Source of the DNA: an uncultured Clostridia bacterium
GTDB lineage: Bacteria > Bacillota > Clostridia > Christensenellales > CAG-314
Direction of reading: 5' to 3'
Length of the DNA: 64,000 nt
Assembly (NCBI GenBank): GCA_934230325.1
Contig: CAKQEP010000002.1
Location: 76,682-140,681 of the forward strand
Each line of letters starts with the position of its first letter. Within the stretch, counting starts at the first letter, position 1. The notes under the pieces are model-generated. The model was not told where the DNA came from. It worked only from the letters and a program-made list of their open reading frames with translations, and searched no databases. The position numbers and the translations under genes are program-made. Positions 5,583 through 12,636 of this stretch are shown in pieces.

Positions 5583-5791
5583 AATTTTTCTTTTTGCGCC
5601 GCTCGACGGCGTTTTTTTTAGGTTTTTGATTGTGAAAATTTAAAACAATATTTTTTTCGGTAAAAATTTTAACAAAACAAAAAATTTTCGGTTTAAAAAA
5701 AGTTTGTGCAAAAAATATTTTGAATAATACGTCTAAACCCTTTACAACTACAGAATTGTGTGATACAATACAGTCACAAGGAGAGCGTTTA

Positions 5792-6250
5792 ATGGACCTT
5801 ATCGATACTAAAATAGTCAAATTGCTTACGCAAAACGCAAGAGCAAACTCTTCCGAAATAGCAGATAAAGTCAATCTTAGCATTTCTGCCGTTATCGAGC
5901 GTATCAAAAAGTTGGAAAATAACGACATCATCGTCGGTTATACCGCTCTCTTAAACCCCGCAAAACTCGGCAAGGACGTAATGGCTCTTATGAGCGTCAC
6001 GTTGGAGCATCCAAAGTTTAACGACGGTTTTATTTCCGCCGTCAACAAAAACAGCCACATAACCGAGTGTTTTTACTTGGCGGGCGAGTTTGACTATCAA
6101 CTCAAAGTCATTACCGACAACACCGCTATGCTGGAAAAAGTTTTAAACACGATAAAAAGCATCGCGGGCGTATCCAAAACAAAAACAAATATAGTTTTGA
6201 GCGTCACAAAAAACGAGCGCAACGCGGCGGTCGACGTATCGGTCGAGTAA
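5792..6250 (+). CDS. Lrp/AsnC-family transcriptional regulator
   Basis: MDLIDTKIVKLLTQNARANSSEIADKVNLSISAVIERIKKLE is the HTH, followed by an RAM/AsnC_trans domain. SD AAGGAG precedes ATG 5792. Confidence 0.9.
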   Translation: MDLIDTKIVKLLTQNARANSSEIADKVNLSISAVIERIKKLENNDIIVGYTALLNPAKLGKDVMALMSVTLEHPKFNDGFISAVNKNSHITECFYLAGEFDYQLKVITDNTAMLEKVLNTIKSIAGVSKTKTNIVLSVTKNERNAAVDVSVE

Positions 6251-6358: not shown

Positions 6359-7519
6359 ATGATTATTGGTATCCCTAAGGAAATTATGCATGACGAGGCA
6401 AGAGTTTCCGCTACTCCCGAAACAGTCAAAAAGATGGTTGCCGACGGCAACACCGTCCTTGTAGAAAAGGGCGCAGGCGCGGGTTCTTTTTATCATGACG
6501 AAGATTACGTCGCGTCCGGCGCGACTCTCGTTGCCGACTGCGAGGAAGTTTTTGCAAAATCCGACGTTATCCTTAAAGTCAAAGAGCCTCTCTTTAATAA
6601 GGAAAAAAATAAGCACGAAATCGACATGATGCATAAAGGTCAATACCTTATTACCTTTATCCACCCTGCCGCCCCCGTCAACCACGAAATGGTCAAAAAT
6701 ATGGCTAAAAAAGGTATCGTAGGTCTTACCCTCGACGGTATCCCCCGCATAAGCCGCGCTCAATCTATGGACGCTTTGTCTTCTATGAGTACTTGCGCAG
6801 GTTACAAAGGAATGCTTATGGGAGCAAGCGATATACCCAAGTTTATGCCCCTTATCGGTTCTGCCGTCGGCGTAATCAAACCCTCCAACGTATTTGTTAT
6901 CGGTACGGGCGTTGCGGGACTTAGAGCAGTCGCTACCGCTAAATCCATCGGCGCTGTGGTTTACTCCGCAGATATTCGCCCCGAAGCAAACGAGCAAGCC
7001 GCTTCTCTCGGCGCAAAAATCGTCGATACGGGCGTACCCAAAGAGATTGCCGTTGCTCCCGACGGAAAACACGCTATGAAACTTTCCGACGAGTGGCTCG
7101 CAAAAGAACGCGCAAACATTGCGGAAACAGTCAAAAACGCAGATATTATTTTCTGCTCCGCTTTGCTTCAAGGACAACTCGCTCCCGTGTTGTTGACGGA
7201 AGATATGGTCAAATCTATGAAGCCCGGCTCTGCTATCGTCGATATTTCTATCGATCAGGGCGGCAACTGCGCTATTACTTCTCCCGGCATTCGCGATATT
7301 AAACACGGCGTAGTAATCGAAGGTATCAAAAATATTCCCGGTCAATTGCCCACCAGCAGTACTTGGTTGTTTGCAAACAATATTTACAACCTTCTCAAGT
7401 ACCTTTCCAAAGACTCCAAAATCGCGCTTGACACTTCTGACGAAATCGTTCAAGGCGTTTTGGTCACCCTCAACGGCGAAATCGTTCACAAGGGCGCTCG
7501 CGAGGCAATGGGAATCTAA
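6359..7519 (+). CDS. pntAA: NAD(P) transhydrogenase subunit alpha part 1 (dI, NAD(H)-binding)
   Basis: MIIGIPKEIMHDEARVSATPETVKKMV, an AlaDH/PNT fold, a VFVIGTGVAGL Rossmann motif and SD AGGAGG. Confidence 0.9.
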   Translation: MIIGIPKEIMHDEARVSATPETVKKMVADGNTVLVEKGAGAGSFYHDEDYVASGATLVADCEEVFAKSDVILKVKEPLFNKEKNKHEIDMMHKGQYLITFIHPAAPVNHEMVKNMAKKGIVGLTLDGIPRISRAQSMDALSSMSTCAGYKGMLMGASDIPKFMPLIGSAVGVIKPSNVFVIGTGVAGLRAVATAKSIGAVVYSADIRPEANEQAASLGAKIVDTGVPKEIAVAPDGKHAMKLSDEWLAKERANIAETVKNADIIFCSALLQGQLAPVLLTEDMVKSMKPGSAIVDISIDQGGNCAITSPGIRDIKHGVVIEGIKNIPGQLPTSSTWLFANNIYNLLKYLSKDSKIALDTSDEIVQGVLVTLNGEIVHKGAREAMGI

Positions 7520-7635: not shown

Positions 7636-10014
7636 ATGTTCGGATTAGATATACTTTATTATCAACTGATATTGTTGGGAGTGTTTGTGATAGCCACAAT
7701 CGTCGGCTACCTCCTCATAAAAAACGTCCCCAGCTTGCTTCACACCCCCCTTATGTCGGGTATGAACGCCCTTTCCGGCGTGACCGTACTCGGCGCGCTC
7801 ACCGCCGCCGCGTTGCTTTTTAAAAACGTCAGCGTCGTTTTGTCGGCCACTCTCGGCGCCGTCGCCGTCGCTCTCGCAATGGTAAACGTCGTTGGCGGGT
7901 TTGCCGTCACCGACAGAATGTTGGCTATGATTGCTAAAAAAAGAGCAAAATATCAGTCTTTGATTTACGTGTTGACGGCAATAATTGCCGCAGGTATCGG
8001 CGTTCTCGTAGTTTTTAGCAATATTAAACAAGAGGAAACGGCGCAATACTTCTACCTCGCCGCAAGCGTTCTGCTCACTTTGGGCGTGCTCGTCGGTATC
8101 GCTATGATGAGCAAGGTTAATATAAGCAAAATCGGCAACAGAGTCAGCGCCGTTTGCATGCTTCTTTCTATTATACTTACTATCGTTTACAACAAAATTT
8201 ATGCGGAATGGTCCATCTATATCGGACTTGCTCTCGGCGCAATCTTCGGCGCAATACTTGCCGCCAAAGTAAAAATGATTCAGATGCCGCAAATGGTAGC
8301 GTTGCTCAACGGTCTCGGCGGCGCGGCAAGCGCAATCGTCGGCGCTTTCGCTATGGCGGGCGTGGGTAGCGGTTTTGACGTATTCAGCAAAATAACCGCT
8401 TCCGTCGCTCTCGCCGTCGGTATGGTCACTCTCGTCGGAAGCCTTGTCGCCGCAGGAAAACTGCACAAAATTCTGCCGCAAAAACCCGTAGTGTACAAAG
8501 GTCACCAAGCGTGGACTATGGGAAGCCTTTTTTTGACCATCGTCGGCATCGTCTTGTACTGCGTCTTTGCTAAGGAAAACGCAAACCTCGCCATCGCTCT
8601 CGGTATCGCCGCTATCGGCGCGCTGTCGTCTTTCTTTGGGTTTATTTTCTCAATAAGAGTGGGCGGCGCGGATATGCCGATAACTATTTCTTTGCTCAAC
8701 AGCCTGAGCGGCGTTGCGGGCGCAATTGCAGGTCTTGCCATAAACGACCTTTTGCTTGTCGCCGTAGGCGGAATCGTCGGAGCGTCGGGCTTACTTCTCA
8801 CGCAAATTATGTGTAAGGCAATGAACCGTCGGTTGGGCGCGATTTTGATGGGCGCGACGGCGGCGCAACCCGCTCAACGTAAACCCGAAAACAACACTGC
8901 AACCAATAAAAAAGAATCCGAACAAAAGCAAGAACAAGTCGTTGTAGAGCAAAATCCTGCGGCTCAACTTAAAAACGCAAAGGAAGTCATTATTGTTCCC
9001 GGATACGGCATGGCAATTGCTCAAGCGCAACACCTTGTCAAAAAACTTGCGGACAAACTCACCGCAAACGGTACGAAGGTAAAATACGCCGTTCACCCCG
9101 TTGCAGGTCGTATGCCCGGCCATATGAACGTTCTTTTGTGCGAAGCAAACGTCGAGTACGAAGATTTGTTTGAAATGGGAGATATTAACCCCGAATTTAA
9201 AACTGCAGACGCCGCTATCGTCATAGGCGCAAACGACGTACTCAACCCCGCCGCAAGAGAAGCAAAAGACACACCCATTTACGGTATGCCCGTGTTGTCG
9301 GTTGACGAATGTAAAAACATTTATATTTTCAACTACGACCTTAAACCGGGATATGCGGGAGTAGAAAACCCCCTGTATTCCCGTAAAGAAGGCGTTCACC
9401 TTTATCTCGGCAATGCTCAAGACACTCTGGCTAAATTCATTAACGATATAGACAAAGGCGAAACTATTAAGACCGAACAAAAGCAAGAACAAATCGTTGT
9501 AGAGCAAAACCCTGCGGCTCAACTTAAAAACGCAAAGGAAGTCATTATTGTTCCCGGATACGGTATGGCAATTGCTCAAGCGCAACACCTTGTCAAAAAA
9601 CTTGCAGACAAACTCACCGCAAACGGTACGAAGGTAAAATACGCCGTTCACCCCGTTGCAGGTCGTATGCCCGGCCATATGAACGTTCTTTTGTGCGAAG
9701 CAAACGTCGAGTACGAAGATTTGTTTGAAATGGGAGATATTAACCCCGAATTTAAAACTGCAGACGCCGCTATCGTCATAGGCGCAAACGACGTACTCAA
9801 CCCCGCCGCAAGAGAAGCAAAAGACACACCTATTTACGGTATGCCCGTGTTGTCTGTTGACGAATGTAAAAACATTTACATTTTCAACTACGACCTTAAA
9901 CCGGGATATGCGGGAGTAGAAAACCCCCTGTATTCCCGTAAAGATGGCGTTCACCTTTATCTCGGCAACGCTCAAGATACTTTGGCTAAATTTATTGACG
10001 ATATAGACAAGTAA
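7636..10014 (+). CDS. pntB: fused NAD(P) transhydrogenase alpha part 2 + beta subunit (dII membrane domain) with two tandem dIII NADP(H)-binding domains
   Basis: The first ~105 aa are PntAB-like TM helices ending GGFAVTDRMLAMIAKKR. PntB TM helices follow. The soluble block VIIVPGYGMAIAQAQH...VHPVAGRMPGHMNVLL...GANDV then occurs twice. Confidence 0.85.
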   Translation: MFGLDILYYQLILLGVFVIATIVGYLLIKNVPSLLHTPLMSGMNALSGVTVLGALTAAALLFKNVSVVLSATLGAVAVALAMVNVVGGFAVTDRMLAMIAKKRAKYQSLIYVLTAIIAAGIGVLVVFSNIKQEETAQYFYLAASVLLTLGVLVGIAMMSKVNISKIGNRVSAVCMLLSIILTIVYNKIYAEWSIYIGLALGAIFGAILAAKVKMIQMPQMVALLNGLGGAASAIVGAFAMAGVGSGFDVFSKITASVALAVGMVTLVGSLVAAGKLHKILPQKPVVYKGHQAWTMGSLFLTIVGIVLYCVFAKENANLAIALGIAAIGALSSFFGFIFSIRVGGADMPITISLLNSLSGVAGAIAGLAINDLLLVAVGGIVGASGLLLTQIMCKAMNRRLGAILMGATAAQPAQRKPENNTATNKKESEQKQEQVVVEQNPAAQLKNAKEVIIVPGYGMAIAQAQHLVKKLADKLTANGTKVKYAVHPVAGRMPGHMNVLLCEANVEYEDLFEMGDINPEFKTADAAIVIGANDVLNPAAREAKDTPIYGMPVLSVDECKNIYIFNYDLKPGYAGVENPLYSRKEGVHLYLGNAQDTLAKFINDIDKGETIKTEQKQEQIVVEQNPAAQLKNAKEVIIVPGYGMAIAQAQHLVKKLADKLTANGTKVKYAVHPVAGRMPGHMNVLLCEANVEYEDLFEMGDINPEFKTADAAIVIGANDVLNPAAREAKDTPIYGMPVLSVDECKNIYIFNYDLKPGYAGVENPLYSRKDGVHLYLGNAQDTLAKFIDDIDK
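8920..10011 (+). repeat. tandem direct duplication with a 555-bp period (copy 1 8920-9474, copy 2 9475-10011), in frame within pntB
   Basis: Hand alignment of the two copies found 14 single-base differences over about 537 shared bp and no indels. Confidence 0.95.
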
Positions 10015-10035: not shown

Positions 10036-10066
10036 ACGGCTGATTTTGCGTCAGCCGTTTTTTTTT
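10036..10066 (+). terminator. intrinsic terminator of the pnt operon
   Basis: ACGGCTGA-N7-TCAGCCGT followed by a T9 run. Confidence 0.75.
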
Positions 10067-10103: not shown

Positions 10104-10322
10104 TTAATAATATTCGTCGCTCAAACCGAGAATATAATCGGATTTTACTTCCAAAAGTTTACATAATTTTGCTAAAGTATCCAACGCAGGAAAAATATCC
10201 CGTTTCATATATTTAGAAACCGTTTGCGGCGATACCCCTATTTCTTTTGCTATTTGACGTTGCGAAAACTGTGAATTTTTTATGCAATCCCGCAATCGTA
10301 TTTGTATATCTTTCAAGTCCAC
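10104..10322 (-). CDS. XRE-family helix-turn-helix transcriptional regulator
   Basis: 72 aa with QRQIAKEIGVSPQTVSKYMKRDIFPALDTLAKLCKLLEV, a Cro/C1-type HTH. GTG start. Confidence 0.85.
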   Translation of the reverse strand: MDLKDIQIRLRDCIKNSQFSQRQIAKEIGVSPQTVSKYMKRDIFPALDTLAKLCKLLEVKSDYILGLSDEYY

Positions 10323-10369
10323 TACTATACACCCGATTTAATATTATTAACTTGTAAAAATTATCGCAC

Positions 10370-10416
10370 AATATACGATAATTTTCTTGACAATCGTATA
10401 TTAGGTGATATATAAT
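10370..10416 (+). promoter_or_regulatory. promoter TTGACA-18-TATAAT overlapped by a perfect 10-bp inverted repeat (candidate XRE operator)
   Basis: AATATACGAT (10370-10379) and ATCGTATATT (10393-10402) flank the -35 (10387-10392). The -10 is at 10411-10416. Confidence 0.5.
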
Positions 10417-10465
10417 ACAAGCGTCGATACAAAAATCGACAAAAAACAACTTTAAGGAGGCTTTT

Positions 10466-11026
10466 ATGTCGGATTACGTAGAAAACAATTTAGGAATGGG
10501 AGAAAAAGTAGTATTAAGAGCAAAAATCAGTTGGCTTACGCTACTAAAACCGATAATATCATGCGTTTTGATAGAAATTATTTTCCATGTCATACTCAGT
10601 ATGGTGTTAAAATCTTTTGACGATCCAAAAACAAAGACAATAATCATCGTGGTTTTGGAAATACTGATTCAGGTTATTGCTTGGTTGCCGTTGATAAAAC
10701 AAATCATAATAAACAACACTACAAAACTTGCAGTAACAAACAAGCGCATAATAGGCAAAATCGGGGTTTTTAGCATACACACAATCGATTATCATATAGA
10801 AAAAGTAGATAATATATCTTATAACGCGGGTGCGTGGGGAAATTTTTTAAAATACTACCGCGTCACGATAAGCGGAACAGGTGGTGACAGTATCACTGTC
10901 CCCGCAGTAAGCAACGCACAAGAGTTTAAAAATAAAGTTAACGAAGCAATAGAAAATCACGCCGCAGAAGCGAGAAGGTCGCAAGCGTCGGAAATTGCCG
11001 CCGCAATCTCCGACACAAGAAGATAA
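10466..11026 (+). CDS. membrane protein with a bacterial PH (bPH_2/YdbT-like) domain
   Basis: An N-terminal soluble stretch is followed by two TM helices. Then comes KLAVTNKRIIGKIGVFSIHTIDYHIEKVDNISYN, typical of bPH domains. SD AAGGAGG. Confidence 0.65.
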   Translation: MSDYVENNLGMGEKVVLRAKISWLTLLKPIISCVLIEIIFHVILSMVLKSFDDPKTKTIIIVVLEILIQVIAWLPLIKQIIINNTTKLAVTNKRIIGKIGVFSIHTIDYHIEKVDNISYNAGAWGNFLKYYRVTISGTGGDSITVPAVSNAQEFKNKVNEAIENHAAEARRSQASEIAAAISDTRR

Positions 11027-11286: not shown

Positions 11287-12636
11287 TTACACCAAGCCTT
11301 GTGCAATCATAGCGTCCGCTACCTTCTTGAAGCCTGCAAGGTTTGCGCCCATAACAAGGTTGTAACCGAGTTTGTACTCTTCAAGAACGTCAACGATTTG
11401 CTTGTGAATGTTCTTCATGATGCCGTGAAGTTTTGCGTCAACTTCTTCTGCAGACCAAGAAAGTCTTTCGCTGTTTTGGGACATTTCAAGACCGGAAACA
11501 GCAACGCCGCCTGCGTTGACCGCTTTGCTCGGGCATACGAGAACGCCGTTTTCTTGCAAGTAAGCAAGAGCCTCGTTGGTGGTGGGCATGTTGGAAACTT
11601 CGTTAACGATTTTTACGCCCATCTTTACGATTGCTTTAGCGTCTTCTATACGGATTTCGTTTTGCATTGCGCAAGGCATATAGATGTCAGCCTTTACGTT
11701 GCCCCAAGGCTTTTTGCCTGCTACAAATTCGCAACCGAATTTGTCGGCGTAATCTTTAACGACGTTGCGGCCGCTGGAACGCATAACAAGCATATACTTG
11801 ATTTTGTCGCCGCTTACGCCGTCTTTGTCGTAAATGTATCCGTCAGGACCGCTGAGCGTAAGTACTTTGCCGCCGAGTTCTGTGATTTTGAGAGCCGCGC
11901 CCCATGCAACGTTGCCGAAGCCGGACAAGCAGAACGTCTTACCTTTGATGGTATCTTTTTGGTGTTTAAGAACTTCGTTGAGGAAGTAGGTTGCGCCAAA
12001 GCCGGTCGCTTCCGGTCTGATAAGGCTGCCGCCAAAGGAAACTCCCTTGCCGGTCAAAACGCCGTTTTCATAAGCGTTTCTGATGCGTTTGTATTGTCCG
12101 AAAAGATAGCCGATTTCTCTGCCGCCAACGCCCATATCGCCTGCGGGGATATCGACGTCAGGTCCGATATGACGATAAAGTTCCGTCATAAAACTCTGGC
12201 AAAAACGCATAATTTCTGCGTCGCTCTTGCCTGCGGGATCAAAATCGCTGCCGCCTTTGCCGCCGCCCATAGGAAGGCTGGTAAGGCTGTTTTTAAGAAC
12301 TTGTTCAAAGCCCAAGAACTTGATGATGCTGAGGTTTACGTTTGATTGAAAACGAAGACCTCCCTTGTACGGGCCTATTGCGCTGTTAAATTGTACTCTG
12401 TAACCGCGATTGACGTGGGGTTGACCTTTGTCGTCCGTCCAAGTCACGCGGAACATGATTTGACGTTCCGGCTCTACCAAACGCTCCAAAATAGCGTTTT
12501 TGCGGTACAGTTCTTCATTTGCTTCTACGACGGGAGCAAGGCTGGTAAGAACTTCCTTAACCGTTTGCATAAATTCCGGTTGTCCGGGATTTTTTGCTTC
12601 TGTTGCGGCGATAACTTCGTTAATGTAGTTAGACAT
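11287..12636 (-). CDS. gdhA: NADP-specific glutamate dehydrogenase
   Basis: 449 aa with LPMGGGKGGSDFDPAGKSD, the GDH active-site Lys motif, and GFGNVAWGAA as the dinucleotide fold. SD GGAGGA. Confidence 0.95.
   Translation of the reverse strand: MSNYINEVIAATEAKNPGQPEFMQTVKEVLTSLAPVVEANEELYRKNAILERLVEPERQIMFRVTWTDDKGQPHVNRGYRVQFNSAIGPYKGGLRFQSNVNLSIIKFLGFEQVLKNSLTSLPMGGGKGGSDFDPAGKSDAEIMRFCQSFMTELYRHIGPDVDIPAGDMGVGGREIGYLFGQYKRIRNAYENGVLTGKGVSFGGSLIRPEATGFGATYFLNEVLKHQKDTIKGKTFCLSGFGNVAWGAALKITELGGKVLTLSGPDGYIYDKDGVSGDKIKYMLVMRSSGRNVVKDYADKFGCEFVAGKKPWGNVKADIYMPCAMQNEIRIEDAKAIVKMGVKIVNEVSNMPTTNEALAYLQENGVLVCPSKAVNAGGVAVSGLEMSQNSERLSWSAEEVDAKLHGIMKNIHKQIVDVLEEYKLGYNLVMGANLAGFKKVADAMIAQGLV

Follow-up and report, generated by a model that had tools for sequence, protein, structure and literature searches.

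The 64,000-nucleotide stretch of DNA analysed here (the window; positions 76,682 to 140,681 of the forward strand of contig CAKQEP010000002.1, assembly GCA_934230325.1, from an uncultured Clostridia bacterium) carries a transhydrogenase (pnt) locus in which pntAA, the gene for the soluble domain I (dI), is directly followed by a fused pntAB-pntB gene. This fused gene (7636–10014 on the plus strand, including the stop codon), recognised from the list of open reading frames (ORFs) and the Pfam families PNTB_4TM and PNTB, encodes a chain of 792 aa in which PntAB-like helices, an extra helix and the PntB membrane domain (dII) are followed by two consecutive copies of domain III (dIII). In this fused PntAB-PntB protein of a proton-translocating transhydrogenase, the entire dIII head, together with the distal part of its linker, has genuinely been duplicated in tandem and in frame. 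The gene belongs to a large and divergent PntB clade occurring mainly in anaerobes (Clostridia and other Bacillota, Bacteroidales including Porphyromonas, Riflebacteria, Anaerolineaceae and Desulfovibrio).

A repeat search revealed a direct repeat with a spacing of 555 nt within the fused ORF, and a base comparison at period 555 matched 8918–9456 to 9473–10011 over 539 bp, without indels and at 97.4% identity, a level and length of similarity that exclude a chance origin. The first repeat unit (8918–9472 on the plus strand, 555 bp) comprises the distal linker, dIII copy 1 (with the fold at approximately aa 441–607) and a unique 16-bp junction (9457–9472) coding for GETIK and for the initial base of the T613 codon. 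The second unit (9473–10011 on the plus strand, 539 bp) comprises the inter-domain linker and dIII copy 2 (aa 620–792), and continues to the stop codon at 10012–10014. A phmmer query with a single dIII likewise yielded two domains (aa 435–607 and 620–792), and positions 296–456 of the NCBIfam PntB model matched copy 2 alone. Tandem Repeats Finder returned nothing, its longest period being 500 and hence shorter than 555. The copies differ by 14 substitutions, 11 of which are synonymous and three of which cause conservative replacements (V435I, E585D and N603D), and the dIII motifs PGYG, HPVAGRMPG and GAND were invariant in both copies, as they were across eight two-copy homologues. An earlier reading of the bare sequence (the original prediction) had proposed a 555-bp in-frame duplication of the entire dIII, the same 14 indel-free substitutions with their 11 synonymous and three V/I, E/D and N/D changes, and a 792-aa order of PntAB-like helices, PntB dII and dIII twice. 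The repeat search, the period-555 comparison and phmmer agree with the first of these while adding the distal part of the linker to the unit, the count of substitutions proved identical over the 539 bp, and the order was recovered by Pfam and phmmer. An internal start yielding a free second dIII was considered and rejected, as no in-frame ATG, GTG or TTG with a plausible ribosome-binding site is present at the junction.

Within the 792-aa chain, Pfam placed PNTB_4TM at aa 14–100 and PNTB in two matched stretches. The PNTB profile (PF02233) scored 736.9 bits against a curated cutoff of 31.7 and was covered from position 5 to 454 of 456, with the second stretch falling on copy 2, whereas the NCBIfam equivalog model NF006974 (Re/Si-specific NAD(P)(+) transhydrogenase subunit beta) scored 505.8 bits and did not reach its cutoff of 689. 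The closest matches in the PDB were Escherichia coli PntB (9l76_C, 1.5e-85), Thermus thermophilus PntB (4o9u_B) and sheep NNT (6que_A). The PntAB-like (alpha2) helices (7675–7935 on the plus strand, aa 14–100; PF12769) could be aligned to the T. thermophilus alpha2 chains 4o9p_C and 4o93_A, and carry the conserved histidine H36 in the motif LLHTPLMS. They are bridged to PntB by an extra transmembrane helix (7954–8019 on the plus strand, aa 107–128) that was predicted by AlphaFold2 (AF2) and that may be analogous, in its topological role, to TM5 of the single-chain mitochondrial NNT. The dII domain itself (8032–8847 on the plus strand, aa 133–404) has GGADMP and CKAMNR intact and, when aligned with the PntB of E. 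coli and of T. thermophilus, shows GGADMPITISLLNS and CKAMNRR (the Asp-Arg salt-bridge motifs). It is followed by the dII-dIII linker (8848–8949 on the plus strand, aa 405–438), the distal part of which lies inside the repeat unit from 8918 onwards. This linker is predicted to be disordered, with a predicted local distance difference test score (pLDDT) below 50 for residues 406–438, and the same holds for the inter-domain segment 609–623 (pLDDT <50). The AF2 prediction was made for the full protein with an 8-sequence alignment and was used for helix counts and disordered linkers only, its mean pLDDT being 60.7 and its predicted template modelling score (pTM) 0.44. In this low-confidence model the chain has three transmembrane helices in the alpha2-like part (aa 6–28, 33–61 and 67–99), the one extra helix, nine helices between residues 133 and 395 of dII, and two Rossmann-type domains.

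The pntAA gene (6359–7519 on the plus strand) encodes the soluble NAD(H)-binding dI of 386 aa, recognised by the Pfam families AlaDh_PNT_N and AlaDh_PNT_C, as a separate polypeptide without a membrane tether, in which the NCBIfam PntA alpha model covers only positions 1–368. Its translation carries the Rossmann Asp (SADIRPE) and the PRISRAQSMDALSS motif, and the NAD-type Asp is kept in dI. With this gene adjoining pntB directly upstream and the PntAB part fused at aa 14–100, all partners of a split alpha subunit are present.

The three-domain architecture of transhydrogenases has been described as universally conserved (PMC5742237). Among characterised enzymes the closest counterpart is the three-polypeptide enzyme of T. 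thermophilus and Rhodospirillum rubrum (PDB 4O9U and 4O9P), in which alpha1 is dI, alpha2 contributes three transmembrane helices, and beta consists of nine transmembrane helices and one dIII. The window locus shares with it the separate soluble dI, the alpha2-type HTPLMS histidine, the nine-helix beta domain with GGADMP and CKAMNR, and the dIII Rossmann fold with PGYG, HPVAGRMPG and GAND (E = 4e-83 against T. thermophilus beta, with more than 50% of the dIII residues identical), but differs in having alpha2 fused to beta via an extra helix, two dIII domains, and N-Y-D in place of KRS/KRG. With E. coli PntAB (PDB 9L76) it has the order of dII and dIII and the catalytic motifs in common, whereas E. 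coli has dI joined to four transmembrane helices in the alpha subunit, and a single dIII with KRS. The protonatable histidine of the proton channel is located in beta TM9 or in alpha2 and is beta H91 in E. coli; in the window protein it is H36 of the alpha2-like part, and the H91 position is Asn, as in T. thermophilus. The single-chain mitochondrial NNT (sheep, PDB 6QUE/6QTI) likewise joins alpha-type helices to the beta domain by an extra helix, and residues 14–597 of the window protein align continuously to residues 502–1072 of sheep NNT, although the mitochondrial enzyme has dI fused at its N-terminus, one dIII and KRS. The statement in the original prediction that characterised enzymes have one dIII per beta chain held for every such enzyme found (PDB matches and PMC5742237), and it is from this rule that the window beta chain departs with its domains at 435–607 and 620–792.

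Tandem dIII domains and the KRS motif in other lineages

All 120 best database homologues of the window protein carried between two and five tandem dIII domains (8 with two, 76 with three, 30 with four and 7 with five). These arrays include, from Porphyromonas isolates, the 841-aa PntB of Porphyromonas endodontalis with 3 dIII, and the PntB proteins of P. gingivicanis, P. uenonis (1033 aa) and P. circumdentaria with 4 dIII each, while the complete 3.70-Mb chromosome of Alkalicella caledoniensis (CP058559.1) harbours a pntAA-pntAB-pntB locus encoding a 1010-aa PntB with 4 dIII. Among species-representative genomes, arrays of 2–4 were encountered in Clostridia and other Bacillota, Bacteroidales, Riflebacteria, Anaerolineaceae, Limnochordia, Haloplasmataceae and Desulfovibrio, and the nearest match, at 76% identity, came from an uncultured Clostridia/Lachnospiraceae metagenome-assembled genome (MAG) that likewise encodes two copies. 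The source of the window is accordingly an uncultured Clostridia species of the human gut. The repeat period was tightly constrained across arrays, at 177–199 aa with a median of 185. A query with dII only brought up many single-dIII relatives of 460–495 aa, indicating that the number of dIII domains spans 1–5 within one clade. Out of 4,095 dIII-containing representatives from a library that had been clustered at 50% identity, 21 of the best 150 had at least two dIII stretches, and the multi-dIII architecture recurs as a minority type.

Copy numbers derived from short-read MAGs represent lower bounds, since at least nine contigs stopped inside a dIII array (L003, L015, L021, L022, L023, L037, L042, L050 and L059). 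The breaking of short-read assemblies by these arrays also explains many of the "partial" PntB annotations in MAGs.

The multi-dIII PntB proteins of P. endodontalis, P. uenonis and A. caledoniensis, which are uncharacterised, resemble that of the window in the period of 177–199 aa, the N-[YFL]-D motif, the free dI and the similarity of their copies. Most multi-dIII relatives, such as those of Alkalicella and Porphyromonas, nevertheless have a separate 98-aa pntAB gene and another copy number, whereas pntAB is fused to pntB in the window. In each of the 76 loci in which dI was visible, 33 of 33 multi-copy loci included, this domain was a free polypeptide; the idea that multiple copies are tied to a split alpha subunit was rejected, as dI is free in single- and multi-copy loci alike. 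The double dIII put forward in the original prediction is hence not singular, being common in databases, but no description in the literature was found: full-text searches, with most subscription-journal papers outside their coverage, yielded neither tandem dIII nor the N-x-D variant discussed below, an absence that is no proof. The only annotation that multi-dIII database proteins bear is "NAD(P)(+) transhydrogenase (Re/Si-specific) subunit beta". The multi-head PntB group is thus widespread and apparently undescribed, with its sequences already public under a generic annotation.

Both copies in the window lack the Lys-Arg-Ser (KRS) motif. In the HMMER alignment with the enzymes of E. coli, T. 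thermophilus and sheep, the position of E. coli beta K424-R425-S426 is taken by N566-Y567-D568 in copy 1 (9331–9339 on the plus strand, codons AAC TAC GAC), and the same replacement is found as N751-Y752-D753 in copy 2 (9886–9894 on the plus strand). N-[YFL]-D was present in nearly all of the 399 copies of multi-dIII homologues as well as in single-dIII relatives, and the extended pattern N-[YFL]-D-x-(K)-P-G-Y in essentially all examined members of the large, mostly anaerobe clade, whereas all Proteobacteria-, Verrucomicrobia- and Deinococcales-type loci with a readable motif had K-R-[SG]. Species-representative loci split cleanly in this respect, with 1–4 dIII copies in the N-[YFL]-D loci and a single copy in all K-R-[SG] loci. 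Clade-discriminating positions cluster round the KRS loop (S404T, K424N, R425[YFL], S426D, F439Y, M446L and F448L). A Lys at the position of E. coli N428, sought as a compensating basic residue, occurred in 74% of the N-x-D clade versus 5%, but is not invariant.

The link between the N-x-D motif and dIII copy number is strong without being absolute. A few KRS-type PntB proteins, such as P0256 (664 aa) and P0258 (a 255-aa fragment), contain two dIII stretches, the second copy of P0256 looking degenerate. That multiple copies occur only in the N-x-D clade is thus nearly but not entirely true, and these exceptions indicate that head duplication arose outside this clade too.

The KRS motif is part of the NADP(H) site, in which loops D and E are said to determine its specificity towards NADP(H) rather than NAD(H) (PMC9529548), and Arg425 is among the NADP+ contacts (PMC13635403). 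The label "NADP(H)-binding" that the original prediction gave to dIII was an assumption, and it does not follow for two copies that have N-Y-D instead of KRS. An Asp is expected in a Rossmann-fold site that rejects the 2′-phosphate, and by this general rule the Asp of N-x-D would be read as 2′-phosphate-rejecting. The nucleotide specificity of the N-x-D clade may differ from that of characterised transhydrogenases. The loss of KRS raises the question whether "NAD(P) transhydrogenase" is a functionally correct name for the whole clade, and the annotation may be unsafe.

Maintenance and homogenisation of the copies

By the method of Nei and Gojobori, the two window copies differ by 0.101 substitutions per synonymous site (dS) and 0.0072 per non-synonymous site (dN), giving a dN/dS ratio (ω) of 0.07 (Fisher p = 6.6e-6). 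Copies within arrays of other lineages (e.g. L026, L011, L040 and L085) yielded dS values of 0.3–2.1 at an ω of 0.01–0.1. More specifically, the Riflebacteria copies (L026) had a dS of 0.44–2.1 and an ω of 0.01–0.03, and those of L011, L040, L027 and P. endodontalis (L085) a dS of 0.5–1.7 and an ω of 0.02–0.09. Copies elsewhere are thus much older at synonymous sites while being near-identical as proteins, which is best read as long-term maintenance by purifying selection. These values speak for the claim in the original prediction that both copies are kept by selection. Moreover, no frameshift or stop was found in the 399 copies examined, save for copies truncated by the end of a contig. In 41 representative lineages, the first copy differed from the last at only 6.5% of core positions and no residue was recurrently specific to copy position, and the heads within an array look equivalent by this comparison.

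Copies were more alike within a protein (~88% identity) than between proteins (60–75%). Positional orthology was detectable only between proteins that are more than ~85% identical, and lineage-specific residues occurred in both copies. At the level of strains, the number of differences between copy 1 and copy 2 was 14, 11, 8 and 4 in four assemblies of the window's species, and strain-specific variants common to both copies were found at positions 9072 and 9120 and their +555 partners. The sole difference between the window and strain L081 was a tract of three single-nucleotide polymorphisms in copy 2, in which L081 equals copy 1. In addition, the window copies share an identical core of 225 bp, the probability of which by chance is 0.007. 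Together, the shared strain variants, the converted tract and the 225-bp core indicate that gene conversion homogenises the copies, so that their low divergence is owed partly to homogenisation, beside selection. Of the original attribution of the substitution pattern to selection, the purifying selection therefore stands, but not selection as its only cause. Copy number itself has probably changed by recombination between the repeats.

In some arrays the last copy was more diverged. Copy 4 of L010 had 72% amino-acid identity where the others had 97–99%, and copy 5 of P0025 had ~60% where the others had 80–89%.

A proposed role for several heads on one proton channel

We consider it probable (roughly 70%) that the repeat is real, selected, and a member of a multi-head clade. 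In structurally characterised enzymes, dIII switches between two positions, face-up beneath the dI dimer and face-down against dII, there is room for only one dIII under the dI dimer at a time, and the dII-dIII linker measures 14–19 residues (PMC5742237). The inter-head linkers are predicted to be disordered and are similar in length to this native linker. The heads might then be pictured as equivalent units on flexible tethers of ~12–25 residues, which would dock in turn at two stations, namely face-down on dII with its single proton channel, where nucleotide exchange is coupled, and face-up on the dimer of soluble dI, where hydride is transferred. Having several heads per channel would give a higher chance of both stations being occupied, and would keep the untethered dI dimer at the membrane. 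To our knowledge, no transhydrogenase works as such a multi-head shuttle.

A number of points weigh against this reading. That the heads take turns at dII and dI is something we purely infer, and the proposal is tentative and somewhat doubtful. In characterised enzymes, dIII on its own binds NADP(H) almost irreversibly except when in contact with dII, and heads unable to reach dII would therefore be kinetically dead. The missing KRS motif leaves the ligand of these heads uncertain, and the structure model is weak, with its mean pLDDT of 60.7. The terminal copies of the L010 and P0025 arrays (copy 4 and copy 5, respectively) could be less constrained through decay or specialisation, so that not every head need function. 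Furthermore, repeats that are 97–99% identical can be mis-phased in short-read metagenome assemblies; the copy number in the window rests on assembly, and for the same reason some of the signal of conversion between strains could be chimeric.

The extra dIII domains might instead have been selected as docking sites for soluble dI dimers or as a tethered nucleotide store, with only the proximal dIII being coupled to the proton channel. The freedom of dI in all multi-copy loci examined would suit such a role, as would the tight dI2-dIII complexes formed by isolated dI dimers and dIII (PMC5742237) and the fact that only the first dIII stands in the native dII-dIII linker context. However, proximal and distal copies carry no distinguishing residue in the 41 lineages, not even on surfaces relevant only to docking on dII, and single-dIII enzymes with a split alpha subunit (that of T. 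thermophilus and many of the loci surveyed) do without extra docking sites, which makes this explanation unlikely. We regard it as similarly unlikely, although conceivable, that the N-x-D clade constitutes a distinct class of anaerobe ion-translocating transhydrogenase that combines an altered nucleotide recognition, lacking the Lys-Arg-Ser 2′-phosphate pocket, with a shuttle of 2–5 heads between one channel and free dI dimers. If this were true, nucleotide specificity or affinity could be altered.

A recent neutral duplication, of which the passenger copy has not yet decayed and the synonymous excess was imported by gene conversion of already-filtered polymorphism, would fit a dS of only 0.10 between the window copies, and gene conversion, which is active here, can for a time give a useless copy a healthy appearance. 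It is nonetheless improbable, as passive persistence does not explain why copies in other lineages remain intact with an ω of 0.01–0.1 at a dS of 0.5–2, why arrays with a tightly conserved period occur in several phyla, or why the 399 copies (those at contig ends aside) are free of frameshifts and stops. It is very unlikely that an assembler joined two alleles or strains of a single dIII in tandem, for although the copies differ by only 2.6%, as is typical of strain variation, and short-read assemblers struggle with such repeats (at least nine species-representative contigs ending inside the array), the junction at 9457–9472 is unique in-frame sequence absent from either flank, the 792-aa architecture was assembled independently in seven contigs of two projects (the identical protein on 5 contigs of Hadza gut metagenomes, and a 99%-identical 792-aa variant on two contigs, each from its own sample, of another project), close relatives all have 2–3 copies, and the complete isolate genome of A. 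caledoniensis encodes 4.

Genuine and selectively maintained dIII arrays would bear on the mechanism of these enzymes. The mechanistic models proposed for proton-translocating transhydrogenase all presuppose a strict 1:1:1 architecture, with one dIII per protomer flipping between dI and dII, and multi-dIII proteins challenge this. With 2–5 apparently equivalent heads, they form a natural experiment in which head number and tether length are varied. Either one channel and one dI dimer can serve several heads, or the majority of the heads do something else, and each outcome constrains the flipping and alternating-site model. The architecture is also widespread in gut and oral anaerobes, Porphyromonas included.

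Features flanking the pnt genes

Downstream of pntB, 22 nt past the stop codon, a hairpin resembling an intrinsic terminator was read from the sequence (10036–10066 on the plus strand). It is formed by ACGGCTGA and TCAGCCGT with a 7-nt loop, and is followed by a T run. A pattern scan of the window for promoters and terminators remained at background level and missed this hairpin, and Rfam detected no RNA family in the whole window. The pnt genes are flanked upstream by an AsnC-family regulator (5720–6250) and downstream by a glutamate dehydrogenase of the ELFV family (11287–12636 on the minus strand, 449 aa); these neighbours, seen in the window's species, hint at a link to amino-acid and NAD(P)H metabolism.

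In the interval that separates pntB from the glutamate dehydrogenase gene, the region 10104–11026 encodes an Xre-type helix-turn-helix protein of 72 aa on the minus strand, as well as a bPH_2 membrane protein of 186 aa. This two-gene cassette is present in the window, L081 and L083, whereas strain L082 has only a 46-aa ORF there (L082 5380–5660). Finally, an antisense ORF of 394 aa (8791–9975 on the minus strand) spans the dIII repeat and is itself internally repeated; most likely it arises merely from the repeat and from codon composition, and is no gene.

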